Source: an uncultured Verrucomicrobiota bacterium (GTDB lineage: Bacteria; Verrucomicrobiota; Verrucomicrobiia; Limisphaerales; UBA1319). Taken from it: a stretch of 64,000 bases of DNA. This document shows positions 50,608 through 63,995 of the stretch, piece by piece; position 1 is the first letter of the stretch; the number at the start of each line of letters is the position of its first letter. The position numbers were made by a program, and so were the translations under genes. The notes beneath the pieces were generated by a model. The model was not told where the DNA came from and did no database searches. It saw nothing but the letters and a program-made list of their open reading frames with translations. The stretch covers positions 76,962 to 140,961 of the forward strand of contig CAYWIM010000001.1 of assembly GCA_964458325.1 (NCBI GenBank), written 5' to 3'.

Positions 50608-50729
50608 ATTCAATCTCGTTGGATCGAACAACAGCTCCGTCGTCGCAGGGCTGGCCAGCCGCATGGATTTGATCATTGATCCCCAGTCCTGATGGGCCTT
50701 TAATCTCTCGAGCAACCACAAATGCGACG

Positions 50730-51647
50730 ATGAAAACGAATCCAGCGATCGGCCGGCGGCAATTCCTCCAAAGCAGCGCCATGCTTATCGCGGGCATGGG
50801 CTTTCACAAGGCCCTGCCCGCCATCGCCGCGCAGGTGAAGCTCGGCACTCCCGCGATGGAGAAGCTGGGCTGGCAGCTCAGCGTCCAGCTTTACACCTAC
50901 CGGCGATTCCCGCTTTTCGAGGCGCTCGACATGGTTGCGGCGCTGGGCATCCGCCATATCGAGCCGCTGACCGCTCTCAAAGTGGATGGCCAGCGGCCGG
51001 ATGTGCGCGCCAACGAGGATATGCCGGCCGATGTGCGCAACGAGCTTAAAGCGAGGCTCGCCGATCGGGGCATGTTTCTCTCGAGTATCTTTGCCCAATT
51101 CACGGGCGCGCCTGACCAGGCGAGACGCCTCTTCGAGTTCTGCAAAGAAACGGGCGCCGGCACGATCGTGGCCGAGCCGCCCGCCGACGCTTTGGACCTC
51201 ATCGAGAAACTCTGTGACGAGCACCGAATCAACGTGGCCTTTCACAATCATGCCCGCGGCCAATCGCCCTACTGGAAACCCGAGCAAGTCCTCGACGCCT
51301 GCCGCAACCGGACCGAGCGCATGGGGGCTTGCGCCGACGCGGGGCAATGGGCGCGCTCCGGGCTCGACCCGGTCGAGTCCCTTCGCAAGTTGAAAGGCCG
51401 CATTCTCAGCTTCCATCTGAAGGACATCGCGAAGAAGAACGAACCGAGCTCGCGCAACACGGTCTTCGGGGAAGGAGAAGGGGATTTTGCGAAGGTCCTC
51501 CGGGAGCTGAAGCGCCTGGGCTATCGCGGCCTGACCACGATCGATTTCGAGCATGACACCCCGGCCCTGCAGGAGGATATGGCCCGGAACGTGAAATACG
51601 TCGAGAAACAGGCCAACGAGATCCTCAACGCGCAAGCGGGACGATGA
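50730..51647 (+). CDS. Xylose isomerase-like TIM-barrel protein (sugar phosphate isomerase/epimerase) with TAT signal
   Basis: ATG at 50730 (MKTNPAIGRRQFLQSSAMLIAG), with AFHNH and FHLKD blocks and GEGEGDF...GYRGLTTIDFEHD. Confidence 0.75.
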   Translation: MKTNPAIGRRQFLQSSAMLIAGMGFHKALPAIAAQVKLGTPAMEKLGWQLSVQLYTYRRFPLFEALDMVAALGIRHIEPLTALKVDGQRPDVRANEDMPADVRNELKARLADRGMFLSSIFAQFTGAPDQARRLFEFCKETGAGTIVAEPPADALDLIEKLCDEHRINVAFHNHARGQSPYWKPEQVLDACRNRTERMGACADAGQWARSGLDPVESLRKLKGRILSFHLKDIAKKNEPSSRNTVFGEGEGDFAKVLRELKRLGYRGLTTIDFEHDTPALQEDMARNVKYVEKQANEILNAQAGR

Positions 51648-51742: not shown

Positions 51743-51976
51743 ATGCAAGAACAATGGCTGTCCGTTGATGAGATCGCACCGGATCCGGGCGTCAAACCGG
51801 ACACGACCTGGAAGGGTGCGGATGCAACGATGCCAGCCGACAAGGCCGGCCGCCTCTGGAAATTCCTCGCCTCCGAGGTGGACGCTGGGGTCAAAGGCGG
51901 CCAAACGGCTCAAGGAGCTAAAGAAGCCGCCCAGACCGCCCGGAAAATCCGCGCCAGAAACAACTCCAAAACATGA
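51743..51976 (+). CDS. Small divergent excisionase/MerR-type (HTH_17-like) DNA-binding protein
   Basis: MQEQWLSVDEIAPDPGVKPDTTWKGADATMPADKAGRLWKFLASEVDAGVKGG parallels the consensus WLSVDEIA..LGV..DT.Y.WI....MPA.K.GRLWKF...EVD.WV..G. The stop overlaps the next start (ATGA at 51973-51976). A longer form starting at 51644 (ATGA overlap with the isomerase stop) is possible. Confidence 0.5.
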   Translation: MQEQWLSVDEIAPDPGVKPDTTWKGADATMPADKAGRLWKFLASEVDAGVKGGQTAQGAKEAAQTARKIRARNNSKT

Positions 51977-53286
51977 ACGCAGTCATCAAACCTTGGCTGA
52001 GCACCGGGCTGATCGTTGCCTTGGCAGGCAACGCGGTGCTGACGGCCATCCTGATCCTCAAGCTGAGCCGCTTTGACGATACGAAAAAGCAGGCCGAGGA
52101 GGTTGAGGTTTTGGCCCAACAAAAACGCACCGAGCTGGCTGCCCTGAAGATCGAGATCGAATCCCTGAACAAGCAGAAAGACTCGTTAGCGCCATATGTT
52201 GCAGACTGGCAAAAGCTGCTGAGCGAGAAGGCAGCAGCCGAAGCGGCTCTGGCCACCAGTGAAGCTAAGCAGCGGCAAACGGATTCCGACGCGACGCAGG
52301 CAGAAAAACGCCTACAGGAAGTTCGGAAGAATCTCGCCGAAGCCCAGAAACAGAAAGCGGACACAGCCGCGGCCATTGAAAGCCTCTCATCAGAATTCGC
52401 GGTGCTGACGAGAACCAATATCGATGTCAGGACCCAGCTGGACCTGGCCGCGGAAGCGCAGCGGCGCTACGCCGAGGCAACGAACGCCCTCGCCAATGCG
52501 GATGTGCGGCGAACGCAGCTGGAAGCCGATGCCACCGCGGCCCAGGCCAAATTTGACCAGCTCCAAAAGGAGGCGGACGATCTTCGCCAGACGCGCGAGA
52601 AGCTAAGCGCCGAAACGGCTCCGCTCCGGCAGCAGATTCAGTCGCTCAGAGAGCAACTGATTCCGTTCGAGCAGAAGGCGACCGACTTGAAGGCGCTCCA
52701 AGCCGCTGCTCAACAGGAGCAGGAAAAGCTCGCGAGAGCTCAGCAACAGCTCGCGGCAGCCGAAACGCGCACCGCCGAGATCGAAGCGCGGCAGCGGCAG
52801 GCAACATCGGAGTTTGCGCAGGTGACCAATCGCATGGATCAGGCGCGGGCGCAGGCCGCAGACTGGGAAATCAAGCGCGACACGGCCCAGCAGGCGGCGA
52901 TGCGGGCCGGCCAGGATCTCGCTGCCGCACAGAAACTTGCCGCCGAAGCCCAGGCCGTCTACGACCAAACCTCTCGAGAGCATGCAAAGGCAGTGGCTCA
53001 GTTGGCGGCGGCAACAAAAGAGCTCGAGCAAACGCGAAAAGACCAGGCGGATTCGGAAGCGCGCCTTGTGGCCGCGAAGGCCGCCCTCGAGAAGGCGGAT
53101 TCGGAGACCACAACCGCTCGGATGCTATCTCTCGAATTCTCCGCCAAGCAGAGCCAACTGACCCGCGACACCTCGCGTCTTGAAGCCTCCATCGAGCGGC
53201 TGAAAACGGAAAAGGATTCGTTGGAAAAGGAAATCGGCCGCATGGAAGCGCAGCGCCAGAAGACCCCGCCGAGCGGGGCTCAATGA
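51973..53286 (+). CDS. Membrane-anchored long coiled-coil protein (island gene 2)
   Basis: 437 aa. The N-terminal hydrophobic helix WLSTGLIVALAGNAVLTAILILKL (nt about 51994-52062) is followed by about 400 aa of uninterrupted heptad-like A/E/Q/K/L/R-rich sequence. Confidence 0.7.
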   Translation: MNAVIKPWLSTGLIVALAGNAVLTAILILKLSRFDDTKKQAEEVEVLAQQKRTELAALKIEIESLNKQKDSLAPYVADWQKLLSEKAAAEAALATSEAKQRQTDSDATQAEKRLQEVRKNLAEAQKQKADTAAAIESLSSEFAVLTRTNIDVRTQLDLAAEAQRRYAEATNALANADVRRTQLEADATAAQAKFDQLQKEADDLRQTREKLSAETAPLRQQIQSLREQLIPFEQKATDLKALQAAAQQEQEKLARAQQQLAAAETRTAEIEARQRQATSEFAQVTNRMDQARAQAADWEIKRDTAQQAAMRAGQDLAAAQKLAAEAQAVYDQTSREHAKAVAQLAAATKELEQTRKDQADSEARLVAAKAALEKADSETTTARMLSLEFSAKQSQLTRDTSRLEASIERLKTEKDSLEKEIGRMEAQRQKTPPSGAQ

Positions 53287-53312
53287 GGCATGTATTTTGA
53301 CAGGAGTCCACT

Positions 53313-55286
53313 ATGCTAAGCACACAAATTTTCCAGTGGTCGCTGTGGGGGCTTTCATTGCTGGCCGGAGTCGGGGCAATTCTGGCGCTTTTCAAACTGC
53401 GTTACGCGGAGCGGTTCCTGCCAGAATGGAACAAGGTCAAGGAGATCGAAGCGACGCTCCCGGTTCGCCAGGAGGAGCTTCGGCAGGTTTCGGAAACCAT
53501 TCAACTCCGGGTCCAGGAACTGGCGAAACTGGAGGGAGAAGTGGGGCGCCTGCAAATTCTTCGTGAGTGGGAAAAGCAGAATCCCGATGCCCCCGCAAGG
53601 ATCTCTCAAATGATAAATGACGTGGACCGCGGAAAGTCTGAGCTCGAAGCTATCCAAACAAAGCTTGGTCAGGAGGAGAGCCGCCTCATAGATAACACGA
53701 AACAAGTCAACGCATTGGCACTTCAGAAGGCTCAAATCGAAGGACAAATCCCAGGATTACGGGACCAAATGGTCTCACTGCATAAACAAAAGAACGACCT
53801 TGAGGTCAAGCTGCGCGACATGGATGACCAGCGCAGGATTCTTGATGCAAGACTGGCCGTTTTGAAGATCGAAATCCAGGATCATGAAGCTCACCTCACA
53901 GCCTTGCGGCCTCAGGTGGCAAAGGCCGAGCAAGATAAGGAAATAGCAGAGCGCGAGAGAAAGGAAGCTGAAGGCGCGCGAGACGCAGCGCGCGCGGAAG
54001 TCAGCAACCTCCAGAAACTTAAGGAGTCTCTTGAGCAGCTTCTCAAGCGAACAGAAATAACCTTAGAGAAAACCGGTGTTACAGGTTCGAAAAGCTATTC
54101 CGATCTCTTTGCACCTGTCTTCAGCCGCAGCTTGCTGTCAAACAAGGGGTTTCAGCAAGAAATTGAAGCTCTGCAGCGCACTCGCGATTATATTAAAAGC
54201 CAAAACCTCATATTTCCGGAGCGGGTGCTTTACGCATTTCATACTTCACTTAAAACGAGTGAGATTTGCCCTCTTGTCGTACTGGCTGGCATCAGCGGTA
54301 CAGGCAAAAGCGAACTTCCTCGCCATTATGCTGATGGCATGGGGATGCATTTCCTGCTTAGCGCGGTCCAGCCTAGGTGGGATAGCCCGCAAGACCTGTT
54401 TGGATTTTACAACTATTTGGAAAAGAAGTACCGAGCGACTGAGTTAGCGCGCGCCTTTGTTCAATTTGAGAAGCCGCACCGAGCGATGCTGGAGGAACTG
54501 GCCAAGGAGCAAGGAGGCGAACTATGTAGCCTCAATGAATATATGCTGCTGGTGCTCTTGGATGAGATGAACCTGGCTCGGACCGAGTATTACTTCTCGG
54601 AATTTTTATCCAAGTTGGAGACACGCAGAAAACTTGATGAAAACAACGATGAGAAGCGCGCGCGTGCCGAAATAGAGCTCGACATGGGCAGCTTGCTCGG
54701 TGGGCTCACTTCTATTCGCCTTTATCCAGGAAAAAATGTCTTGTTCGCGGGAACAATGAATGAGGACGAGTCTACACAAGCTCTTTCTGATAAAGTTGTA
54801 GATCGTGCCAGCGTTCTTCGATTCTGGCGTCCCAAGCGAACAAACCTTGAAACACGAGAAAAACCAAACTTGCCGACGACGAATGGATTGAAGATCGATA
54901 CTTGGCAGCAATGGGTGCGGACCTCTGACAATTTAGCGTCAAAAGACAAAGATATTACATCTTGGATAAATAGGTTGAACGACGCGCTAGAAAGAATGGG
55001 ACGCCCCTTCGCTTTTCGAGTTGATGAGGCCATACGCTGCTACATAGCCAACTATCCTCGTGGAAACGTGCAAGACTGGCATAAGCGCGCAATGGCGGAT
55101 CAAATTGAGCAGCGCATCTTTCCGAAGCTACGCGGCATTGAAATCGAGCTCGCTCAAGAATCGCTGCGGGGCATTGGTGAGATTATTAAGCAGTTGGAAG
55201 ACGAACCGCTGAGCAAGGCGTTCCAAGCAAGTCACGAAAACCAGTCAACTTTTCTTTTTCGTGGCGTGGTGCGCGGCGACGATTGA
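53313..55286 (+). CDS. Membrane-anchored coiled-coil protein fused to a McrB/AAA_5-like NTPase (island gene 3)
   Basis: An AGGAG sequence lies 7 nt upstream of the ATG. It has a TM helix (WSLWGLSLLAGVGAILALFKL), a coiled coil at about aa 30-255 and Walker A LAGISGTGKS (54285-54308). It also has VQPRWDSPQDLFGFYN, Walker B LLVLLDEMNLARTEYYFSEFLS (54546-) and GTMNEDES...DRASVLRF (54750-). Confidence 0.75.
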   Translation: MLSTQIFQWSLWGLSLLAGVGAILALFKLRYAERFLPEWNKVKEIEATLPVRQEELRQVSETIQLRVQELAKLEGEVGRLQILREWEKQNPDAPARISQMINDVDRGKSELEAIQTKLGQEESRLIDNTKQVNALALQKAQIEGQIPGLRDQMVSLHKQKNDLEVKLRDMDDQRRILDARLAVLKIEIQDHEAHLTALRPQVAKAEQDKEIAERERKEAEGARDAARAEVSNLQKLKESLEQLLKRTEITLEKTGVTGSKSYSDLFAPVFSRSLLSNKGFQQEIEALQRTRDYIKSQNLIFPERVLYAFHTSLKTSEICPLVVLAGISGTGKSELPRHYADGMGMHFLLSAVQPRWDSPQDLFGFYNYLEKKYRATELARAFVQFEKPHRAMLEELAKEQGGELCSLNEYMLLVLLDEMNLARTEYYFSEFLSKLETRRKLDENNDEKRARAEIELDMGSLLGGLTSIRLYPGKNVLFAGTMNEDESTQALSDKVVDRASVLRFWRPKRTNLETREKPNLPTTNGLKIDTWQQWVRTSDNLASKDKDITSWINRLNDALERMGRPFAFRVDEAIRCYIANYPRGNVQDWHKRAMADQIEQRIFPKLRGIEIELAQESLRGIGEIIKQLEDEPLSKAFQASHENQSTFLFRGVVRGDD

Positions 55287-55289
55287 GAA

Positions 55290-57053
55290 ATGCGACCTTT
55301 TCTGTTTGCTGAACCGTGGGATTGGCTGCTGGGAACACACTGCTTATTGGAACCTCCTGTTGCGGTGGAGGGGGGTGGATCGCCGCGGCTGCTGACAAAT
55401 CTTCCCAAGGAATTTATGGACCTGGACCGGCCAACTGTTGCATTGCCGACCGGCAAGGCCGCGCTGCCGGCGTGTTCCTTCCCATTCCTGCTAGGTGCCG
55501 AACCTGCCCAGGCGTGGCATATACCGACCGACGCCAGCACGCACCGCCGGGATGCCGACTTCCGTCTGGCAATATCGTTCAGAAACGAAGTGTTTGACCT
55601 GCTCCAGCAAGGGATCCTTCTGCGGCCACCGCCCAAGGCAACCGACGAAGGCATCATTGGTACGTTGAGCGGGGCTGTGGCACAATGGATTGACTGGCAG
55701 GTGCGAGCCTTTCAGGAGCTGGGCCACATTCCTGAAGTCCACGATGGCGATTTCGAAGCTGCTACCCGCTCGGCAGTCGTTCGCCGAACATGGGAATCAG
55801 CAAAGAAAGCTTGGCTGAAGAACGAGACAGAAACGCCGCGGATGGCTCTGATCGTCGAACTGAGCCGGGATCAATATTTGCATAGTGCTCTCGAATCTGT
55901 GAGCCGCCATCCGCGGCGCATTCTCCAGCGCTACCGCACCGATACAGCACTGCCTCGCATTCAGGAGTTGGACTCCGCCTGCATTCGAGATTTCGCCCGA
56001 CGGCCGGGTATTACCGCAGTCGAGAAAGCCGGCTCCCGTCAGCGGCTGCTGGCCGTTATGCGTCGAGAGCAGCGAAACACACTCGAGAATAAAGTCGCAG
56101 CGTGGGTCATGGAAGCCGAAGTTGATCTTGCGCGGGAATATGCTGTTGCAAATGCGAGCTTCGATTGCAGTGACCCCAAAGTCGCAAGTGTTCGCCGCTT
56201 CGGAAACCGAAGCGCCCAATGGCGAAAATCCGAAGAACTGTTTGATGTAGCAGCCCTGGCTCACCACGTAGAAAGCCCGAATTACCCGCTCCAGTTCGAC
56301 GCCCGCTACAAATTGGTGTGGAAGACCTACCGCCGAATTCTCCGGGAGAAGAGCGTCGAAGACGATGCCTGGGCCTGGCAGCGTGTTCTTTGGGGCGAGA
56401 CAGGGCGTCAATTGGTGGCCTGCTGCCTTAACCAAATGTTCAACCCAATCGGCATCAGCACCCCATTTTACCGCACCGAATCACGCCAAGGCTGTTGGAC
56501 GGAGCCACCCGTTGCGCCGGGACCATTCCAGACCAATTCAGGCGACTGCCTCTTGTTTGACAGCCGCGACTTGGATGATGCGTCGGGCCACGCCCGTCGG
56601 CGCTGGATCGAGCGCCCTCCATTCCGTGGCGCCCAATATCTCGGCGCCAGCGGTTGCGACCAGGTTCTTTTTTGGCCAAGTAGCAACCGCGCGTTACTTG
56701 TATGGCATTTCTATCATGCCTCGCTTGAAAGAGCCGAGGGCGGACTCCAGGGTATTCTTGCCCGATGTGCTTGTGGGCTTGAGCAGCTTGGTGCCGATAT
56801 ACGCCGATACGCACAGAATCAGGTCCATCTGAGCGGGTTGCTCCTGATCGCCGATCTAGGCCGCAGTGCCACTCAGGATGCCCGTCAAAACGAAAGGTGT
56901 GTTGCCCTCGAGCCTGGTCCCCGTCTCACTTCCGGCGGCGGAGTCAACGCCCTGTGCCTGCCGCCGCCCGACGTGGATGCATGGCGCCGGTTCTCAAGCG
57001 ACCTTAAAGAAGGTTTTGAACTCGTAGTCGAGGAAACGTTGCGCACAACATGA
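55290..57053 (+). CDS. McrC/DUF2357-like partner protein, nuclease motif apparently degenerate (island gene 4)
   Basis: The gene starts 3 nt after the NTPase gene. The block RHPRRILQRYRTDTALPRIQELD...RREQRNTLENKVAAWV (56076-) resembles the McrC/DUF2357 ..DTPENRF.K.. region. Where PD...(D/E)xK is expected, the sequence reads GCDQVLFWPSSNRALLVWHFYHAS (56655-56723). Confidence 0.45.
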   Translation: MRPFLFAEPWDWLLGTHCLLEPPVAVEGGGSPRLLTNLPKEFMDLDRPTVALPTGKAALPACSFPFLLGAEPAQAWHIPTDASTHRRDADFRLAISFRNEVFDLLQQGILLRPPPKATDEGIIGTLSGAVAQWIDWQVRAFQELGHIPEVHDGDFEAATRSAVVRRTWESAKKAWLKNETETPRMALIVELSRDQYLHSALESVSRHPRRILQRYRTDTALPRIQELDSACIRDFARRPGITAVEKAGSRQRLLAVMRREQRNTLENKVAAWVMEAEVDLAREYAVANASFDCSDPKVASVRRFGNRSAQWRKSEELFDVAALAHHVESPNYPLQFDARYKLVWKTYRRILREKSVEDDAWAWQRVLWGETGRQLVACCLNQMFNPIGISTPFYRTESRQGCWTEPPVAPGPFQTNSGDCLLFDSRDLDDASGHARRRWIERPPFRGAQYLGASGCDQVLFWPSSNRALLVWHFYHASLERAEGGLQGILARCACGLEQLGADIRRYAQNQVHLSGLLLIADLGRSATQDARQNERCVALEPGPRLTSGGGVNALCLPPPDVDAWRRFSSDLKEGFELVVEETLRTT

Positions 57054-59761
57054 ACGGCATTGTCGGCATTGGCATTGACCTCACCCAGCACGTTCCGCTG
57101 GTGAGCTTTGCCGTGTGTCCAGCCGCTCTGCGGGCAGACGACACAATGGATGCCCAGATTCTCGCAAACCAGTGGCCACCAAAACTGGAACTTGCCGGAG
57201 TGTTCCATCCGCATGTGCCTTGTGCTGTTCTGCCTGTGCACTCGGGGGAGCCGCTGCTCATCGGGGATGCGGCTGCAATCCATCGCCGGTCCTCTGGCCT
57301 CCCATGGCCACCGGAAGCCCAAGTGCCTTATGGCAACGACACCAGTTTCGGATTTGGGCGGGTGCCATTAGCAGCAGCATGGAGTGCGCTGCTGCCCCAA
57401 GCCGATGAAAAGGAGTCCCTAACCCATCGTAGCGATCACGCGTTCAAGTGGTCTCCAGAAAAACGAGAATACACATCTTATGCTGGCACCATTTTGGCTT
57501 CAAGCATCAAGGCTTTTCTCGCTGCCGCCCGAGTCCCTATTTCATCCCGGCTGACAACGATCGTGGTTCCTGATGCTCTCGATGAGGCCGGGCAGCAAAT
57601 TCTCCTCGAGAGCCTTGCCCAGGTTGGCATGGCTGCCGACAACCTCCATTTGTTGCCCAGGCCGCTGGCTGTGGCCTTGAATTGGTGCAGCACTGCCAAG
57701 GAACCAGTGGGAGTTGCCGACGAGGTCGAGGCGGGCACACCAATCGGCCGTTTGCGAGTGCTGACAACTGCGCTCGACCTTTGGGAAGCCGTCTCTCTGG
57801 AACTCCGGGTTCGCTCCCACGCCGGGCGAACTTGGCTTTTGCCTGTTCGCGATCGTGCCAGGCTGAACGCGGCCTTGCCGGAGCTTCAAACACCCGGTCT
57901 GAGCTTCGCTATAGCCCTCGCACGTGCCGAAGACAATGGTGCTCATCTTCATTGGTGGCACCGTCTTTTCGCCAGCGATTGGCTCACCCAACGTCTTGCC
58001 GCTGCGCGGGATCTCTCATCTGAGGAGATTCAAAGTCTTCGCGAGATTCGTTCCTCACGGCCCCCGGAAACATTGCGTGAGCAACTTGAACAAATCGAAG
58101 TGCTTAGACCCATCACGACGCGCCTTTTCCGCGATACCCCGTCCCTTCGTGACGATGTGGCTCGCAAATGGCAGGCCCAGGAGCGCCAAGTCGGTTTCGC
58201 GAACTATCCCTGCAAAGCGGTGTTAGCGGATGGAGCCCTATCCTCGCTCAGGATGGAGCGCGGCATTCCTCTTGGGCAATTCGTCGTGCAGCATGACGGC
58301 GATCCTCACTCACCCGATTGGCTTGCGGGATACACCGCCGCCGTTCACGGTGCCGCGCTCGCTGCAGCCGCCATTGGGTCCGGCCTGCCGTGCTACCGCG
58401 AGACATTATTGCCGCTGGACCTCTATGTCTTCGCAAAAAATGATTACGGCGATCTTATCCCGCAATGGCGAGAACTGGTTAAAACGGAAAGCGTTGAGGC
58501 AGGAAGAACATGGAAATGCCCAGCACCCGTCGTCGGCCTTCAAATCCGCGAAAAACAAGACCGACTTCGAGTGCTTCTTCGGCGAAAACTTGCAGGCACC
58601 GCACCATTTCGGCAAGTTACTTCAGAGCTATTAAAACCAGCTCCCAATGACGAGCCCGTTCAAATAAATATTGAGGTAAGGCCGGGCCAGGGTTTCGCCC
58701 AAGTTCGCATTGACTCCCTCACTCCAGGCTTGTTTGCCAGTCGTCTTGACTGGCGTACGATGGCCAAGTGCGATGAACCAAAGTGTCCGCCACTCGCATA
58801 CATTCCTGGTGTTTCTCGGATAATTCCGGACCGCGAGATGTTCGATCGTGCCCAAAGCACTCTGGAGGAGGTGCTACTGGCGCTCGTGAGAAACAGCCCG
58901 GTGGTTAGGCAGCGGCTTCGCGAGGCTATCAAACTGCTAAACAAGTGGCCGCTTGCGCATAACGTGGAGCAGTCCAGGGGGCACACGATGGCCAAAGATT
59001 TTATGATTCATTACGGCGTCATCGGCTCAGAGGGGCGCTTGGATGCTTTGCCTTCTCCCGAGCTCGCACGCAGCCTTCGGAACGCCATTGGCGAAAAATT
59101 TGCTTCATTGGTCAGGCGAGGTGCTGTATCCTCGCCCTTAGGTAATTCTTTGCTCCGAATCGCGGGATGGTTCTACATCGCTATTCCAGATGAATGCCTT
59201 ACCTTTCTTCGGTCAAGGCTTCCCAAGTCATCAGAAGATAGTGTCATGCTGTCGGCAGTTGAGCTTCACGCCATCGGGTTATCCTTGTCACAACCCAGCG
59301 ACACAAGCCGGTTTTTCCCTGTATGCACTCAGGCATTAAGAAGCCCTAAGGCCAAGCCCAACAATTATCTCCGTGCAGTCCGCAACATTTGTCGCTTCCG
59401 GAACGACGCTTTGAGCCCGGCGACAATATCTGATGCAGTGCTAAACCAGCTTGTAGATGAGTTGTTTGAAATAATGCGCAGACATCTTGTTAAAGGGGGT
59501 TTCGCACCTCGTATTGTAGCAAATTGTTTAGAAACGTTGCTATTTTTGCTTAAGCGTCGGCGTTACGATGCTGGTTTCCTTGCGCCGACCTCTTCCCTTG
59601 CCGGATCTTTAATTCACTTCCTCGAAAGAGTGAGCAAGTATCATAACTGGCGGCTGCCGCCACGGTTGCAGCAAGTAGGCCAAACCACGGTGAGATTCCT
59701 CAAGATGGAAGGAACGCTCACCGACTTGGAAGACCTCTTAAGCGATGATCAGGAGCTGTAA
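57050..59761 (+). CDS. Hsp70/actin-fold (ASKHA)-like protein with beta-rich and long helical C-terminal regions (island gene 5)
   Basis: It makes an ATGA overlap with gene 4. IVGIGIDL (57065-) resembles phosphate-1. TIVVPDALDEAGQQILLESLAQVGM..NLHLLPRPLAVALNW (57560-) parallels Hsp70 ITVPAYFNDAQRQATKDAG.IAGL.V.RIINEPTAAALAY. LDLWEAVS stands in place of DLGGGTFD, and AAVHGAALAAAAIG (58340-) parallels EAVA.GAA. About 450 further aa follow. Confidence 0.55.
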   Translation: MNGIVGIGIDLTQHVPLVSFAVCPAALRADDTMDAQILANQWPPKLELAGVFHPHVPCAVLPVHSGEPLLIGDAAAIHRRSSGLPWPPEAQVPYGNDTSFGFGRVPLAAAWSALLPQADEKESLTHRSDHAFKWSPEKREYTSYAGTILASSIKAFLAAARVPISSRLTTIVVPDALDEAGQQILLESLAQVGMAADNLHLLPRPLAVALNWCSTAKEPVGVADEVEAGTPIGRLRVLTTALDLWEAVSLELRVRSHAGRTWLLPVRDRARLNAALPELQTPGLSFAIALARAEDNGAHLHWWHRLFASDWLTQRLAAARDLSSEEIQSLREIRSSRPPETLREQLEQIEVLRPITTRLFRDTPSLRDDVARKWQAQERQVGFANYPCKAVLADGALSSLRMERGIPLGQFVVQHDGDPHSPDWLAGYTAAVHGAALAAAAIGSGLPCYRETLLPLDLYVFAKNDYGDLIPQWRELVKTESVEAGRTWKCPAPVVGLQIREKQDRLRVLLRRKLAGTAPFRQVTSELLKPAPNDEPVQINIEVRPGQGFAQVRIDSLTPGLFASRLDWRTMAKCDEPKCPPLAYIPGVSRIIPDREMFDRAQSTLEEVLLALVRNSPVVRQRLREAIKLLNKWPLAHNVEQSRGHTMAKDFMIHYGVIGSEGRLDALPSPELARSLRNAIGEKFASLVRRGAVSSPLGNSLLRIAGWFYIAIPDECLTFLRSRLPKSSEDSVMLSAVELHAIGLSLSQPSDTSRFFPVCTQALRSPKAKPNNYLRAVRNICRFRNDALSPATISDAVLNQLVDELFEIMRRHLVKGGFAPRIVANCLETLLFLLKRRRYDAGFLAPTSSLAGSLIHFLERVSKYHNWRLPPRLQQVGQTTVRFLKMEGTLTDLEDLLSDDQEL

Positions 59762-59765
59762 TTCG

Positions 59766-62700
59766 ATGATAGGCCGCATCATTCAAACGCTTGCTCTTGC
59801 GCATGGTCCGCAGACTGCAGCAGAGGTTTGCGATTCCATGCGGCGTGGTGGTCTTAAAATAGAAAAGTATGAAGTTGTTCAACAATTGCGGCAACTTCAG
59901 AAAAGAGGAATCGTAAAGCTGGAAATAGTGAGATGGCGACTACTGCAAATGCCGAAAGAGACAGACTTTCTACCCGGCGAAAAGGTCAAAGAATCTGCTG
60001 GCTCGCTCCCTATAGGCAAAGATGGTGGCGCGTCGGTTTGGCAATCGAGCGCAAACACCGTAATCGTGGCGCCGCCGCAGATGCCGCCAGGGCGGTGGGA
60101 CTTGTTTCGGCGGTTCTGCCGCTACTACATGGACTGTCTTCTGCAGGAAGAGGCGCCGCAATTGCGGTGCTATGTCGACAATGAGGATGACACGTGGATC
60201 GTTGCACCGCAGGTTCCGTGGGCGAGGCTGAGTGCAAATGGAGGGTTTGCCATCCCACTGTCGCGCGAGCAGGCCGCGTTTCAACGCAATCGCGTGCGCC
60301 GGGGTGAGGAGGAGTGCATTTACCTATGCTACCCGGTCCTGCTTGTGAAGCCGAAGGAGACTTCGCGGTTCGTGGTCCCGCTGTTTGCACAGCCGATGCA
60401 GGCAGAATGGCACGGCGGCATCATGCATCTTCAACCCGATGGTCCGATCGCCGTCAATGGTGCGTGGCTCGAATACTCATTCCGTCAGCGAAAAGAGCGG
60501 GAGGCATTCCTTCGCGCCATGGGATTTTTGAACGACGCCGGGGCGGACGAGGAAGGCGAAGGGGTGTCAACCGGACCGAGAGATTTCGCACGGCTTGCTC
60601 AGGACGCAGCGCATTACATCCATGATGCCGCCCGTTTTGCCGAGGACATCCGGCCGTTTCAGCTCGGCCCGCCGCCGAACTGGGAGAAAGCGCAACCGGG
60701 TCTGTACAACACGGCCCTTCTGACCCTTGGCCCCCGACTGAAATACACCCGGAGCCTCCTGCGCGACCTGCGAGACATTTCTGAAAAATTCACCGACCAG
60801 GAATTGGACGGAACGGCTCTGGTGTCCCTTTTTCCGCATGACCCGGCACCGGCCGAGCCCCAGGTGCCGCCTCCGGCAACCGCCGAACCTTCGGTGCCGG
60901 CCGATACGCCTTTCTTTGCCGCTGAAGATCTTGCACAAACTCGCCTTCTTCATACCAGCCAGCGCGCGGCTGTCGTGAACTCGCTCGCGGAGAGAGTGTC
61001 CATGGTGACCGGTCCGCCTGGCACTGGCAAATCCGAAGTCGTGGCGGCAATGCTGCTAAATCATTTGCTCAGGGGACAGCCTGCGCTCTTTGCCAGCAAG
61101 AACCACCAGGCTCTTGACGCTGTTCTGCCCCGTCTGAATGCCGCTGTCGAAGGCGGCGATCTCATCATCCAGACTTCAAGCCGCGAACTCGCACAACGAC
61201 AGAATTATCTGGGCAAGCTGCAAAGTCTTCTGGCCCGTCCGTCTCGGCCCGATGCGGCGCGAGGCGACGGCTTCCGCCGCCAGCTTGCCGGTTCTTTTCA
61301 GGAGCAGCGCACAGCCCTCAGGGACATTGGCACGATTGAGCGCGCTCGGAGCGAGTATGAGGCGGTGAATGCAAAGCTCACTGAGCTGCGCAAAAGCCTG
61401 CCCTTTCACGCGCAATCGGATGAATGCATGGCCTCCTGGCCCGCCGCGATGTCCCCTGAACTCCTGGCCGAAGCGCAGACCGAGCTGCGCCTGGCGATGG
61501 CCCAGCCAGAAAACCTTCTCGAAAGGATCTGGCAATGGTTTCGAAGAACTCAAATTGAAGCCAGGCGCAAGGCGGCTCGAGCGCCATTCGAGGGGCTTCC
61601 ATCCCCGTTCGCCGACCGCAACCTGCCTGGCGCACAATCACCGGCAGAAGCGTGGGACGAATACTTTGGTATCTGGGGAACTTGGGCTGAAGCTGCCCGC
61701 GCCGCCGCGCTTGCGCGCAGTTGCGAGCAGCGCATTGCTCAATTGCCACAGGCCGAAGAATGTAATCGCCGGCTCGAACACGCCCAGCAGGCGATTGAAC
61801 GCCAGACCAGAGAGTGGATGGCCTGGGCGGCCGGCGGCTTGCCGAACGTGCTGTCGCCAGCGGACCGCGAATCGCTCGCAAACCTGCGTGCCGGCATCCA
61901 GAACTGGGGGCCGGACCGATTCGCCCGGGAACTCAAGAAACACTTCCAGCTCATTCTCCGCGCGTTTCCTTTATGGTCGGTCTCCAACCTTTCGGCGCGC
62001 AGCGCGATTCCCCTTGTGCCGGCACTGTTCGATCTTGTCATCATTGACGAGGCCAGCCAGTGCGACATCGCGTCCGTTGTCCCTTTGCTGGCCCGGAGCC
62101 GGAAGGCTGTTTTTGCCGGTGATCCCATGCAGTTGGCCCATGTCAGCACGCTGGGCGCGGCCGTCGAGCAAACCCTGCTCCAGCAATACGATCTCACGGA
62201 TGCGCAGGTGCAGCGGTTCACGTATCGCGTCAACAGCGCATTTGTCCTCGCGGATGCGAACGCGTCGATTCCTGAGAGCGCTCGGGTTCGCCTTGATCTC
62301 CATTTCCGATCGCATGGCCTCATCGCGGATTACTGCAATGATGCGTTCTATTCGAAGACGCTGAATGTCGTGACGCTTACTGAGCGCCTCAATGTTCCGC
62401 CGGGCCACCAGCCAGGAATCCACTGGACACATGTGGCCGGCACACTGAGACCGGGCCCGACCGGCGCGTGGTGTGCTGACGAGATCGAAATAATCGAGCG
62501 GGAGCTGCGCTTATTGGCCGCGAGCGGTTACCGAGGCACCATCGGTGTGGTTACGCCTTTCAGACAGCAAATGATCCATATCAGGGATACCTTCGATGCG
62601 AATGGAGCCCTCGCCCCCGATTTCATGGAGCGCGTGCGCTTTCTGGCCTCAACCGCTCATGGTTTCCAGGGTGACGAGCGTGACCTGATTCTATTCAGCC

Positions 62701-63278
62701 TTTGCGCGGGCCCGGAAATGCCCGAAGGCGCAACCATTTTTCTTCGCGAGAATCCCAATCTGTTCAATGTTGCCGTGTCTCGCGCCCGGGCCGTTCTGCA
62801 CGTGGTCGGCAACCGCGATTGGGCGCTCAACTGCGGGGTCCCGTTCATCGAAAAACTCGCGCGCCGCACTGTCCGTGGCGCTACGAGCGCACCTCCGAAT
62901 CCGCCGGAGCCTTACCAATCCCCGTGGGAGAAAACCCTTGCCGATGCCTTGGCTGAGGCCGGCATCAAAGCGATCCCACAATACCCCATTGCGGGGCGGT
63001 TTCTCGACTTGGCCATTCTCAGCCCCGTCAAGGTCGATGTGGAAGTGGACGGCGAATCTGTCCACCGGACCGCCGGCGGCGGGCGAAAGGACGACGATTA
63101 CTGGCGCGACCTGCAGCTCCAAAGCCTTGGCTGGAAGGTGTGCCGGTTCTGGGTGTATGAGCTTCGCGAAGACCTGGATCGTTGCATTCGAAGGTTGAAT
63201 ACAATGCTCAGTGAATCATTGAGGAGGCCGACCGGGAACGTGTTGCCGCAAGATGAAAACGAAAGCCGTACGCAATGA
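59766..63278 (+). CDS. SF1 (UPF1/DNA2-like, AAA_11/AAA_12) helicase with N-terminal winged-helix-like domain, large helical insertion and C-terminal Vsr/DUF559-like PD-(D/E)xK nuclease (island gene 6)
   Basis: The alternative ATG at 59745 overlaps gene 5 by 17 nt. Helicase motifs are: I GPPGTGKS (61011-61034), II DLVIIDEASQ (62031-), III VFAGDPMQL, HFRSH..IADYCNDAFY, IGVVTPFRQQ, TAHGFQGDERDLILFS and FNVAVSRAR. The C-terminus reads RFLDLAI...VDVEVDGESVH...DYWRDLQLQSLGWKVCRFW (about 62916-63203). Confidence 0.85.
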   Translation: MIGRIIQTLALAHGPQTAAEVCDSMRRGGLKIEKYEVVQQLRQLQKRGIVKLEIVRWRLLQMPKETDFLPGEKVKESAGSLPIGKDGGASVWQSSANTVIVAPPQMPPGRWDLFRRFCRYYMDCLLQEEAPQLRCYVDNEDDTWIVAPQVPWARLSANGGFAIPLSREQAAFQRNRVRRGEEECIYLCYPVLLVKPKETSRFVVPLFAQPMQAEWHGGIMHLQPDGPIAVNGAWLEYSFRQRKEREAFLRAMGFLNDAGADEEGEGVSTGPRDFARLAQDAAHYIHDAARFAEDIRPFQLGPPPNWEKAQPGLYNTALLTLGPRLKYTRSLLRDLRDISEKFTDQELDGTALVSLFPHDPAPAEPQVPPPATAEPSVPADTPFFAAEDLAQTRLLHTSQRAAVVNSLAERVSMVTGPPGTGKSEVVAAMLLNHLLRGQPALFASKNHQALDAVLPRLNAAVEGGDLIIQTSSRELAQRQNYLGKLQSLLARPSRPDAARGDGFRRQLAGSFQEQRTALRDIGTIERARSEYEAVNAKLTELRKSLPFHAQSDECMASWPAAMSPELLAEAQTELRLAMAQPENLLERIWQWFRRTQIEARRKAARAPFEGLPSPFADRNLPGAQSPAEAWDEYFGIWGTWAEAARAAALARSCEQRIAQLPQAEECNRRLEHAQQAIERQTREWMAWAAGGLPNVLSPADRESLANLRAGIQNWGPDRFARELKKHFQLILRAFPLWSVSNLSARSAIPLVPALFDLVIIDEASQCDIASVVPLLARSRKAVFAGDPMQLAHVSTLGAAVEQTLLQQYDLTDAQVQRFTYRVNSAFVLADANASIPESARVRLDLHFRSHGLIADYCNDAFYSKTLNVVTLTERLNVPPGHQPGIHWTHVAGTLRPGPTGAWCADEIEIIERELRLLAASGYRGTIGVVTPFRQQMIHIRDTFDANGALAPDFMERVRFLASTAHGFQGDERDLILFSLCAGPEMPEGATIFLRENPNLFNVAVSRARAVLHVVGNRDWALNCGVPFIEKLARRTVRGATSAPPNPPEPYQSPWEKTLADALAEAGIKAIPQYPIAGRFLDLAILSPVKVDVEVDGESVHRTAGGGRKDDDYWRDLQLQSLGWKVCRFWVYELREDLDRCIRRLNTMLSESLRRPTGNVLPQDENESRTQ

Positions 63279-63410
63279 GGTCATCACATCCAAATAGTTG
63301 ACAATGAGGCAGAGGGGATGAAACGGGGGTGCGGCGCGATCGCTGCGCGTCCGAATATCCAATGCCTGATATCAATTATTCAGATGCGCCCCCAACGATT
63401 CTCATTAACG

Positions 63411-63995
63411 CTAGGGCAGGGCGACTTCGACGGCGAAGAAGCAGACTGGCGTTTGAAGGGCATCGGCGGGGGTCTCGATGCTGACGCGCTCCCATTCGGA
63501 GTCGATGGCGGTGACGGAGGGTGTGCCAGCCATGGGGGTCCACGAACCCGAGCTCAGCGTGGTCGATTGTTTCGGGGTGTAGGTCACATCGCCATTCTTG
63601 CGCCGAACAAATTCGAAGCGAGCGACCGGCGCAGGACCTTGTCGATCGAGCCAAAGGACAGGCAGGCCGGAAACCCCAGTGCCGGGAGTTAGCCGGCGGT
63701 CATCCGGGCCGCTGCCGTTCATGTTGAAAGCGTATTTCAGTGCGTTCGGGATGCCGTCGCCATAGGGCGCCGCTGACGGGAGGGCATGGTTGCCGGTGAG
63801 GCCGGCTGCCTGGATCCAAAGCTGCCATCCATCGTTGGTGAGGCCGGATGCCAGGCGGAAGAAGACGGCTTCGCACCAGGAGATGGATGGCTCGATGTCC
63901 CAGGCGCCATCGCCCAGATAAGTGCTCGTGATATAGACCTGATTGGTGGCGTCGAGCCGGGTGATTTGTTCGCCGATGTTCGGCATTCGGCCCAC
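63411..63995 (-). CDS. C-terminal part of a hypothetical surface/secreted protein (N-terminus beyond window end)
   Basis: The ORF is open to the window edge. It contains WIQAAGLTGNHALPSAAPYGDGIPNALKYAFNMN, a motif common near the C-termini of large PVC surface proteins. I assigned no specific family. Confidence 0.45.
   Translation of the reverse strand: MGRMPNIGEQITRLDATNQVYITSTYLGDGAWDIEPSISWCEAVFFRLASGLTNDGWQLWIQAAGLTGNHALPSAAPYGDGIPNALKYAFNMNGSGPDDRRLTPGTGVSGLPVLWLDRQGPAPVARFEFVRRKNGDVTYTPKQSTTLSSGSWTPMAGTPSVTAIDSEWERVSIETPADALQTPVCFFAVEVALP

Follow-up and report, generated by a model that had tools for sequence, protein, structure and literature searches.

A probable Type III-B CoCoNuT operon from an uncultured Verrucomicrobiota bacterium, with membrane-anchor-like helices on both coiled-coil proteins

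CoCoNuTs (coiled-coil nuclease tandems) are a large, computationally defined family of predicted immune systems, for which a single functional report was found, on a Type II member. A 64,000-nucleotide stretch of DNA from an uncultured Verrucomicrobiota bacterium (contig CAYWIM010000001.1), referred to below as the window, carries at positions 51743-63278 of the plus strand an operon that is probably a Type III-B CoCoNuT, a McrBC-derived, Type IV-restriction-like defence system, of a Verrucomicrobiota/Planctomycetota (PVC) lineage. A first-pass annotation, made from the sequence, had likened these genes to CoCoNuT types II/III. The class was rightly recognised, as the domain set matches the definition of Bell et al. 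(eLife 2024, PMC11090510), and the Cnu gene names given there fit, in the order cnuA-cnuB-cnuC-cnuD-cnuH. Type III stands and can be narrowed to III-B rather than Type II or III-A, because the locus has neither a separate HEPN CnuE nor TerY-P genes. On this assignment the locus is of an already catalogued kind, III-B being a published subtype. The wider interest lies in the membrane-anchor-like helices that begin CnuA and CnuB; otherwise this is the correct recognition of a catalogued system and not of a new kind.

As defined by Bell et al., a III-B locus encodes a CnuA in which nothing besides coiled coil is recognisable, a coiled-coil CnuB with an NxD GTPase signature, and a separately encoded CnuD. 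Its CnuC combines an immunoglobulin (Ig)-like domain, DUF2357 and an inactivated PD-(D/E)xK fold, and its CnuH an N-terminal winged helix-turn-helix (wHTH; Sul7s-like), an OB-fold without stalk, a helical insertion that follows Walker A and, fused directly, a Vsr-like nuclease; a TerY-P triad and a separate CnuE are both missing. Every one of these features that gives a clear test, ten in all, is found in the window. No TerY-P triad (VWA, PP2C and Ser/Thr kinase-zinc ribbon) lies in or adjoining the operon, about 700 bp being covered on the downstream side. An opposite-strand Ser/Thr kinase gene, 3.4 kb upstream, lacks VWA and PP2C partners and sits in DNA with the guanine-plus-cytosine (GC) content of the host. 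No separate CnuE is present in the operon, and there is no conserved gene 3' of cnuH. The domain assignments that the first-pass annotation had proposed for checking, namely AAA_5/McrB, DUF2357, HSP70, AAA_11/AAA_12 and DUF559/MTES_1575, are borne out by profile matches (AAA_5 on CnuB falling just short, at 21.9 bits against a Pfam cutoff of 22) and, for the products of g4 and g5, by Foldseek.

The operon was found as six open reading frames (ORFs), g1 to g6, all on the plus strand and all where they had first been placed. Recomputed, the spacings are the same as before (-4, +26, +3, -4 and +4 nt), the stop of g1 and the start of g2 overlapping by 4 nt, and the motifs quoted earlier for g3 and g6 were all located in the translations. 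Genes g2 to g6 each have full-length homologues, at 38-69% identity and with the order kept, in independent metagenome-assembled genomes (MAGs), and they are thus real genes rather than chance ORFs of GC-rich DNA. These five make up the core, and their ORFs are intact, as are the NTPase motifs of CnuB and CnuH; of the "six-gene" operon first described, g1 is a degenerate accessory that lies outside it. The start of g4 at 55290 is favoured by homologues, and that of g6 at 59766 by a methionine invariant among the aligned homologues; an alternative g6 start at 59745 was rejected, as the homologue alignment gives it no support. The deposited g4 protein (P0330, 545 residues) begins 42 residues late, so that 55290-55415 is lost and the first Ig-like strands are clipped. 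A scan of the operon for internal promoter-like or terminator-like sites gave no excess over shuffled sequence and is uninformative; nothing was found that argues against a single transcript for g1-g6. The GC content of the operon, 50.6-61% against 65.6% over the first 50 kb of the window, is below that of the host, which is consistent with horizontal acquisition.

CnuA (g2, 51973-53286, plus strand; 437 residues) is predicted to consist of an N-terminal hydrophobic helix and then about 400 residues of coiled coil. CnuB (g3, 53313-55286, plus strand; 657 residues) would be composed of a transmembrane (TM)-like helix, about 220 residues of coiled coil and a McrB-like AAA+ GTPase. Over residues 29-336 of g2 and 29-252 of g3, hydrophobic residues recur with a period of 3.5 at 2-10 times background (2.7-10 times in g3), and proline plus glycine make up 0-4% (g2) and 4-9% (g3) of these regions. 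The only profile matches of CnuA are of the coiled-coil type (SMC, Rad50, JetC and LmuB), all far under the cutoffs of Pfam, PADLOC and NCBIfam; homologues 38-55% identical to it occupy the same position in the PVC loci. The coiled coil N-terminal to the CnuB GTPase gave matches of the same type (SMC, Rad50 and JetC). Identification of either protein as SMC, Rad50, JetC, LmuB or SbcC was rejected, the matches being far under cutoff and restricted to coiled-coil stretches.

The GTPase domain of CnuB has a Walker A motif, GISGTGKS (54288-54311, plus strand; residues 326-333), which is kept in homologues, and both Walker B (LLDEMN) and DRASVLRF are present. Its GTPase signature, GTMNEDES (54750-54773, plus strand; residues 480-487), reads N483-x-D485 followed by glutamate and is an NxD variant; this signature, shortened from NxxD and in most cases followed by E or D, defines the branch of McrB that includes the CoCoNuTs (Bell et al. 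2024, PMC11090510). Among the matches listed, GTMNEDEST occurs in all but one of the full-length CnuB homologues, and it occurs also in the Rhizobium loci. Identity to Sinorhizobium and Rhizobium plasmid genes is 45% over the GTPase domain, and that to Rhizobium CnuB is 36% over residues 102-654. The PADLOC model PDC-M26A matches g3 over residues 158-440 only (E=2.9e-40); none of the PADLOC models matches g4 or g5, and a literature search for the make-up of PDC-M26 found nothing.

CnuC (g4, 55290-57053, plus strand; 587 residues) is made up of three domains: an Ig-like beta-sandwich (55290-55610, plus strand; residues 1-107), a DUF2357 helical core (55653-56438, plus strand; residues 122-383) and a PD-(D/E)xK-like alpha/beta domain without (D/E)xK (56466-57041, plus strand; residues 393-584). 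DUF2357 (PF09823) is matched with 28.8 bits (cutoff 23.3). The same succession of beta-sandwich, helical core and alpha/beta domain is seen in an AlphaFold2 model built with 33 homologues (pLDDT 88.3 and pTM 0.86, the predicted local distance difference test and template modelling scores). Foldseek returned only two significant PDB matches for this model, both to E. coli McrC (6hz4_M and 6ut6_G, probability 1.00). Because a sequence profile of CnuC searched against PDB sequences did not reach McrC, the link between the two proteins is structural only. Residues 1-107 are all-beta in the model and have weak Foldseek matches to pullulanase N-domains, the NF-kB dimerisation domain, transglutaminase and titin; in Bell et al. 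(PMC11090510) the Ig-like domain of III-B CnuC matched isopullulanase. The aspartate D457 is conserved, indeed invariant, just before a core strand. At residues 468-475 (ALLVWHFY), the strand where (D/E)xK would be expected, no position has a conserved acidic residue or lysine among the 33 homologues. On alignment and model, the nuclease fold is predicted to be inactivated through loss of the PD-(D/E)xK motif. A dead McrC nuclease had been put forward as an undescribed feature; the motif is indeed missing here, but the same loss is published for all Type II/III CnuC proteins (Bell et al.). A cluster look-up with ten CnuC homologues found relatives in Desulfopila and Kiritimatiellia and none of the III-B exemplars of Bell et al. 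(TBW38397/38399/38400, PDS29263, ATX65552 and RLB93046). No profile or fold match of CnuC is of the coiled-coil type, its helical middle being assigned to DUF2357.

CnuD (g5, 57050-59761, plus strand; 903 residues) has no match in Pfam, PADLOC or NCBIfam, and its identification comes from structure. In an AlphaFold2 model (pLDDT 85.2, pTM 0.75) it comprises a nucleotide-binding domain (NBD; residues ~1-445), a beta-sandwich substrate-binding domain (SBD; ~446-594) and an all-helical, HEAT-like tail (~595-903). The top 48 Foldseek matches in the PDB are all Hsp70 or Hsp110 proteins, aligned across NBD and SBD with E values down to 8e-9. The phosphate-loop motifs of Hsp70 are GIDLGTT and DLGGGT; the corresponding loops of CnuD are degenerate family-wide, reading GIDLTQH and D.WEA. 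The family has 720 cluster representatives, mostly of 800-900 residues. The combination of an Hsp70-like part and a helical part in one polypeptide, also first taken to be undescribed, is present, but it is the published architecture of CnuD, which Bell et al. (PMC11090510) describe as an Hsp70 NBD/SBD with HEAT-like repeats. A tblastn search of plasmids with g5 gave zero matches. The CnuD profile is strong on PVC CnuD proteins and weak on those of Rhizobium (21-25 bits, colinear), and it did not detect the III-C and III-A equivalents.

CnuH (g6, 59766-63278, plus strand; 1170 residues) is a UPF1-like superfamily 1 (SF1) helicase with a Vsr/DUF559-type nuclease. It opens with a wHTH-like module (residues 1-62), followed by a middle region with no assigned fold, the helicase (~394-1020) and the nuclease (1055-1147). 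AAA_12 (68 bits) and AAA_11 (61 bits) are both above their Pfam cutoffs, as are MTES_1575 (47.6 bits, cutoff 38.2) and DUF559 (28.3 bits, cutoff 20.6) over residues 1055-1147; no Pfam profile matches residues ~110-390. The helicase motifs GPPGTGKS (Walker A, residues 416-423), IIDEASQ (motif II, residues 759-765) and VAVSRAR are present, and between the first two lies an insertion of ~280 residues (~460-740), helical and with a 3.5-residue periodicity. The nearest solved sequences are those of SEN1, NAM7/UPF1, SMUBP-2 and DNA2. In the nuclease, the motif LD1081...E1093-V-D1095-G-E-S-V-H1100 (63003-63065, plus strand) holds candidate catalytic residues that look intact, and the pattern D...ExDGxxxH is common to Rhizobium CnuH. 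E. coli Vsr, the characterised member of this nuclease family, is a DNA endonuclease. As judged from these motifs, the Vsr-type domain looks to be the only nuclease of the operon with an intact active site. The N-terminal 62-residue module is conserved and drew sub-threshold matches only, all of them winged-helix (HTH_20 at 18.2 bits, MCM4_WHD, MarR_2 and HTH_12). CnuH is 67-69% identical to its full-length verrucomicrobial homologues and 52% identical to a Planctomycetota one. Mokosh (MkoA/MkoC), Hhe, ProA and PLuB were considered for g6 and rejected, because the matches are partial and cover mostly the shared SF1 core: ProA reaches 145 bits against a cutoff of 1500 (SF1 core plus nuclease region), Hhe 96 against 2000, and MkoA/MkoC are partial.

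Among the features that the first-pass annotation had thought undescribed, the N-terminal anchors on both coiled-coil proteins have held up: the helices are real as sequence features, conserved, and unmentioned in the text of Bell et al. In CnuA a TM helix is predicted at residues 8-29 (WLSTGLIVALAGNAVLTAILIL; 51994-52059, plus strand), followed by the K/R-rich KLSRFDDTKK; in CnuB it is predicted at residues 9-27 (WSLWGLSLLAGVGAILALF; 53337-53393, plus strand), followed by KLRYAER. The 19-residue Kyte-Doolittle means are 2.28 for g2 and 1.93 for g3. The positive charges after each helix would give an N-out/C-in topology. Every PVC CnuA homologue checked has the helix (2.1-2.6), as does Rhizobium CnuA (2.18-2.19), and in all PVC loci checked CnuA and CnuB both carry one. 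For CnuB, the Kyte-Doolittle maximum over the first 90 residues was surveyed in 120 listed matches with the usual cut-off of ~1.6; among these, nearly all full-length homologues are above the cut-off, and those under it are mostly N-terminally truncated fragments. Values for CnuB are 2.4-2.8 in Rhizobium and Sinorhizobium and 2.39 in the Type III-C system of Synechocystis, whereas three III-A CnuB references have no N-terminal hydrophobic helix (-0.6 to 0.05). On these comparisons the putative anchors are a trait of the whole III-B/III-C group and not of this locus alone. In the text of Bell et al. (PMC11090510), transmembrane helices come up solely in connection with CoCoPALM, EssC, a four-TM protein and ShdA, and a literature search for membrane-anchored McrB-like systems gave nothing relevant beyond that paper; the N-terminal helices thus appear to be a conserved feature on which no one has remarked. 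We lean, by a modest degree, towards the view that CnuA and CnuB are single-pass N-out/C-in inner-membrane proteins and that the whole assembly of GTPase, dead McrC, Hsp70-like protein and helicase-nuclease hangs from the membrane on coiled-coil stalks.

That the genes would be found together elsewhere, near defence genes, had been proposed as a check, and the five-gene set does recur across phyla, usually beside known defence genes. Related loci are given below by number (L001 and so on). A CnuD-profile search of a one-genome-per-species GTDB set (~185,000 species genomes) found five loci only, all in Verrucomicrobiota or Planctomycetota MAGs. Shared genes stand in the window's order at six distinct loci in MAGs of these phyla, four of which have all five genes: A-B-C-D-H is complete in L002/L003/L008 (one place), L004, L006 and L017, the last representing a second verrucomicrobial clade. 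In L007 (Planctomycetota) a contig end cuts the locus, leaving cnuC-cnuD-cnuH visible. Neighbouring genes include an MvaI/BcnI-Dcm-Vsr restriction-modification module on one side of L001 and Cas9-Cas1-Cas2 on the other, HsdM and an HNH protein at L002, Shedu and a restriction endonuclease at L009, and an OLD-family ATPase-TOPRIM gene at L017.

At L001 (4905-12709; GCA_028268125.1, JAOLKG010000009.1) cnuA-B-C-D are present and cnuH is absent, which points either to loss of the helicase-nuclease or to the existence of a four-gene form; of the relatives of the window's CnuD clade that were examined, this one is the most distant (38% identity). CoCoNuT copies are often disrupted by insertion sequence (IS) elements. 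At L005 (Verrucomicrobiota MAG contig DAOPPX010000001.1; 15134-17658) an insertion of ~2.6 kb, with two reverse-strand ORFs of 535 and 306 residues, splits the CnuH homologue straight after the helicase motif GDPMQL and looks like an IS element that inactivated the system. In Enterobacter cloacae pPOL9A (L012:10664-12465) an IS21-family element lies between cnuB and a cnuCD fusion. In R. tropici (L010:1982-11543) cnuH is shorter at its N terminus (732 residues against 1032 in R. leguminosarum) and comes directly after an IS21 istAB pair; cnuC of this locus is also short, at 404 residues. Between the window (51973-63278) and L017 (8624-19507), identity is 69% for CnuH, 55% for CnuA, 48% for CnuB, 37% (partial) for CnuC and 27% (partial) for CnuD; the L017 CnuD loop, GLDLGG, is more Hsp70-like. 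That CnuC and CnuD diverge so much faster than CnuH (27-37% against 69%) suggests, at the level of sequence, cassette exchange or fast evolution of the pair. Such divergence would be expected of a specificity or sensor module under arms-race selection, or of one exchanged as a cassette.

The nearest examples examined outside the PVC phyla are on rhizobial plasmids. In a plasmid search with the GTPase domain the best matches (45% identity) come from megaplasmids of Sinorhizobium and Rhizobium. All five genes stand in the order H-A-B-C-D on R. leguminosarum OyaliB p2 (L009) and R. tropici CIAT 899 pRtrCIAT899b (L010), and a Sinorhizobium plasmid additionally carries a CnuB gene. Of the III-B exemplars of Bell et al. 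(PMC11090510), TBW38397 is H, 38399 is B and 38400 is C, and as the accession numbers are consecutive the H-A-B-C-D order fits them. The Rhizobium loci match the window in all five proteins and their domain sets, have GISGTGKS and GTMNEDEST in identical form, carry helices on both CnuA and CnuB, and lack a TerY-P triad and a separate CnuE. Identity between window and R. leguminosarum is 36% for CnuB, 41% for CnuH (C-terminal part) and 31% for CnuC (DUF2357 region), with similarity at the coiled-coil level only for CnuA. They differ in gene order (A-B-C-D-H in the window), in host (PVC bacteria, not Alphaproteobacteria), in protein length (CnuC 587 against 498 residues, CnuD 903 against 786 and CnuH 1170 against 1032 in R. 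leguminosarum), in the decayed HTH_17 gene upstream in the window, and in CnuD, which is related at profile level only (21-25 bits). In a neighbour-joining tree of the CnuB GTPase domain (200 bootstraps, reference subtypes assigned by gene content), a 66% bootstrap joins the window's clade (itself at 100%) to its sister, the Rhizobium/Sinorhizobium group; addition of the second PVC clade (68%) and Synechocystis III-C gives a group at 82%, with III-A outside.

Comparison with other relatives shows how the subtype is set apart. The Type III-C system of Synechocystis sp. PCC 6803 pSYSX (L011) shares with the window an NxD coiled-coil CnuB with an N-terminal hydrophobic segment, a GTPase domain 43.5% identical, a DUF2357 CnuC and a separate large gene at the CnuD position, whose 800-residue product is missed by the window's CnuD profile. 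Unlike the window, it has a separate PLD-family effector, no Vsr domain fused to a helicase and no CnuA. The III-A and II systems (E. cloacae pPOL9A L012, Caballeronia L014, Photobacterium L015 and "Obs") share the NxD coiled-coil CnuB, the UPF1-like CnuH and an Hsp70-like module, which in III-A is fused to CnuC. However, they have a separate HEPN CnuE, usually TerY-P genes (for a PP2C phosphatase and a kinase), and a CnuH bearing SmpB-like and RelE-like domains, and III-A CnuB lacks the N-terminal hydrophobic helix. E. coli McrBC (6hz4, 6ut6) likewise pairs an AAA_5 GTPase with a DUF2357/McrC-fold partner, but McrB has an NxxD signature and an N-terminal DNA-reading domain where the window's protein has NxD and a TM helix with coiled coil, its McrC has an active PD-(D/E)xK nuclease, and there is no Hsp70-like protein, helicase or CnuA. 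Canonical McrBC is therefore ruled out for the window by the NxD signature, the TM helix with coiled coil and the missing (D/E)xK. CoCoPALM (Bell et al. 2024) also has a TM and coiled-coil N-terminal extension on an NxD McrB-like GTPase, but with SipA-like signal peptidase/pilus-assembly genes, a coiled coil on McrC, and neither CnuD nor CnuH.

Several observations weigh against the assignment to III-B and what follows from it. The membership rests on features and on plasmid references that were themselves assigned to III-B by content. The sister relation to the alphaproteobacterial group has a bootstrap of only 66%, CnuD is extremely diverged from Rhizobium CnuD, and the window's gene order differs from that of the Rhizobium loci and, by accession numbers, from that of the paper's exemplar. 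The wHTH of CnuH depends on sub-threshold matches, and no defence genes neighbour the operon on its left within the window. With regard to the anchors, they have been deduced from hydropathy, flanking charge and conservation. Some of these points would be accommodated if the locus belonged to a subtype of its own, confined to PVC bacteria and sister to the III-B already published, with the helicase last, larger CnuC, CnuD and CnuH, a CnuC-CnuD module of another kind and an HTH_17 regulator that is ancestral. All PVC loci have A-B-C-D-H where Rhizobium has H-A-B-C-D, the three proteins are longer by the margins given above, the match to Rhizobium CnuD and the grouping with Rhizobium are as weak as has been described, the HTH_17 gene or its remnant is confined to PVC loci, and the PVC phyla are never named in the text of Bell et al. 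We nevertheless consider such a subtype unlikely, and the matter to be largely one of naming. The component and domain set is identical to that of III-B, and Bell et al. (PMC11090510) classify by GTPase phylogeny and gene content, not by order. L017 has the window's order yet falls outside the pair formed by the window and Rhizobium, so that gene order defines no single clade; and "primarily Alphaproteobacteria", the description given by Bell et al., leaves space for other phyla. It is much less probable still that the operon is a housekeeping membrane scaffold of coiled-coil and Hsp70-like proteins, with a task such as organising the envelope or nucleoid, or controlling RNA quality at the membrane, rather than immunity. 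Two anchored coiled-coil proteins and an Hsp70-like protein do resemble cytoskeletal or chaperone assemblies, and the left flank in the window is housekeeping. However, this CnuD clade is patchily spread, with its five loci in ~185,000 species genomes, the GC content of the operon is atypical for the host, relatives repeatedly adjoin restriction-modification, Cas9, Shedu and OLD-family genes, copies are often broken by IS elements, and descent from McrBC together with a nuclease-armed helicase points to defence. Least probable of all is a CoCoPALM-type system, with the GTPase fused to an FtsB-like TM helix and coiled coil and linked to pilus assembly. The TM-like helix of CnuB does stand directly before the coiled coil, in a manner superficially like FtsB/FtsL, and one homologue has been named "cell division protein FtsL" by JGI. 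Yet no signal-peptidase or pilin-assembly gene is found in or beside the operon, CnuC has no match of the coiled-coil type, CnuD and the CnuH-Vsr protein that define III-B are present, and the GTPase domain groups with the III-B/III-C references.

Within the III-B reading, a working mechanism can be outlined. By analogy with E. coli McrBC, CnuB would assemble into a McrB-like GTPase ring, to which CnuC, its own nuclease dead, would bind through DUF2357 as McrC does, serving as activator or adaptor. The long coiled coil of CnuB would pair with that of CnuA, both proteins being tethered by their single N-terminal helices to the cytoplasmic membrane, on its inner side. CnuD may be a poorly hydrolysing Hsp70-like clamp with a HEAT-like tail, which binds the trigger or the target; its ligand would be RNA, after Bell et al., a peptide or ribosome-associated ligand being also possible. 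CnuH, as a UPF1-like 5'-3' helicase, would unwind invading nucleic acid and cut it with its Vsr-type nuclease, the only plausible catalytic one. The statement in the first-pass annotation that such systems lack experimental characterisation is outdated for the class: "Obs", a CoCoNuT of Type II, reportedly protects Pseudomonas from PP7 and LeviOr01, both RNA phages, and from the DNA phage MPK7 (bioRxiv 10.64898/2026.04.06.716636). A literature search for experimental reports on Type III-B found none. The III-B substrate may be DNA, RNA or both. Bell et al. (PMC11090510) argue that an Hsp70-like CnuD whose ATPase motifs are degenerate would be well suited to bind RNA and that CoCoNuTs targeted RNA ancestrally, whilst inferring RNA targeting by III-B only from its similarity to III-A. 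A further point against the preferred reading is that RNA targeting by III-B is weakly grounded, because the only intact nuclease comes from a DNA-nicking family (Vsr). A DNA-only, Type IV-like restriction system, in which foreign DNA is sensed by the CnuBC motor where it enters, at the membrane, or serves as the track along which that motor translocates, and is nicked or degraded by CnuH, with no role for RNA, is accordingly a credible though less likely alternative. The sole intact-looking nuclease belongs to the Vsr/DUF559/MTES_1575 family, the helicase core resembles those of the DNA-acting DNA2 and SMUBP-2, a membrane location would suit the interception of injected DNA, and the reported Type II system blocks a DNA phage too. 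Against this, the nearest solved helicases are the RNA helicases SEN1 and UPF1, CnuB is without the DNA-reading N-terminal domain of McrB, and there are the arguments of Bell et al. for CnuD and for an ancestral RNA target; as the operon has no HEPN or other dedicated RNase, this counter-evidence is indirect.

Upstream of the core, g1 (51743-51976, plus strand) had been described as a divergent excisionase-type HTH (helix-turn-helix). The relationship to HTH_17, of the excisionase/MerR type, is upheld, but g1 is better described as a decayed copy, because its homologues score and the window copy does not. The homologues upstream of cnuA in L004 and L005 reach 56-59 bits against PF12728 (HTH_17; cutoff 27), whereas g1 of the window has no Pfam match even at E<=1. 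Compared with these homologues, core hydrophobic positions of the HTH are changed in g1 (L->P, I->T, W->G and V->A), both ends of the protein are still conserved and the ORF is open. On its sequence this looks like relaxed selection on a leader gene that is still translated. The HTH_17 gene is intact in two of the six distinct related PVC loci (L004 and L005) and a remnant in L006; no homologue of g1 was found in the remaining related loci, and the annotation of the Rhizobium loci shows nothing HTH-like upstream. The gene is thus an optional, sporadic accessory, which is decaying in the window. An upstream HTH had also been listed as an undescribed feature of the system; such a gene exists, but as an accessory of this sporadic kind. 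Identification of g1 as MADS MAD1 was rejected, as it had only a weak NCBIfam match (25.7 bits against a cutoff of 80), and a longer g1 start at 51644 was likewise rejected because an ORF starting there would overlap the stop codon of the TIM-barrel gene upstream, and because homologues do not match it.

That xylose-isomerase-like TIM-barrel gene (50676-51647) abuts the operon on its left, and further left are an ECF-type sigma factor and a Ser/Thr kinase, so that this flank is housekeeping in character. The same junction, TIM-barrel gene-g1-g2-g3, is seen in L018 (Logan SRR11845633 contig 2528, 5.6 kb), which encodes an identical g3 product and in which g1 is called as a longer 110-residue form; the identical left junction shows that the same insertion site has been sampled independently. 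As the window holds no tRNA genes, no tRNA-linked integration site is visible, and the flanking ORFs scanned gave no match to integrase families. Downstream of cnuH the window ends after ~700 bp. The ORFs found there, at 63318-63692 (plus strand) and 63411-63995 (minus strand), have no Pfam match and no counterpart in any related locus, and there is therefore no seventh operon gene. Across the window, GC skew is strongly positive up to ~45 kb (+0.1 to +0.3) and lies close to zero or just below it beyond ~46 kb; its cumulative curve peaks near 46 kb, which might reflect a change of gene orientation or mark a replication landmark.

What is new here is a compact and apparently intact five-gene example of III-B, from a phylum group unmentioned in the text of Bell et al., and with it the existence of the III-B operon in two circularly permuted gene orders. 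If the membrane anchors of CnuA and CnuB are real, a McrBC-derived restriction system would be placed where phage genomes enter the cell, at membrane-bound ribosomes or at sites of viral replication, and III-B and III-C would be set apart mechanistically from the soluble Type II and III-A systems. The membrane would then need a place in models of how the subtype senses and cuts invading nucleic acid, and would have to be considered in any reconstitution.

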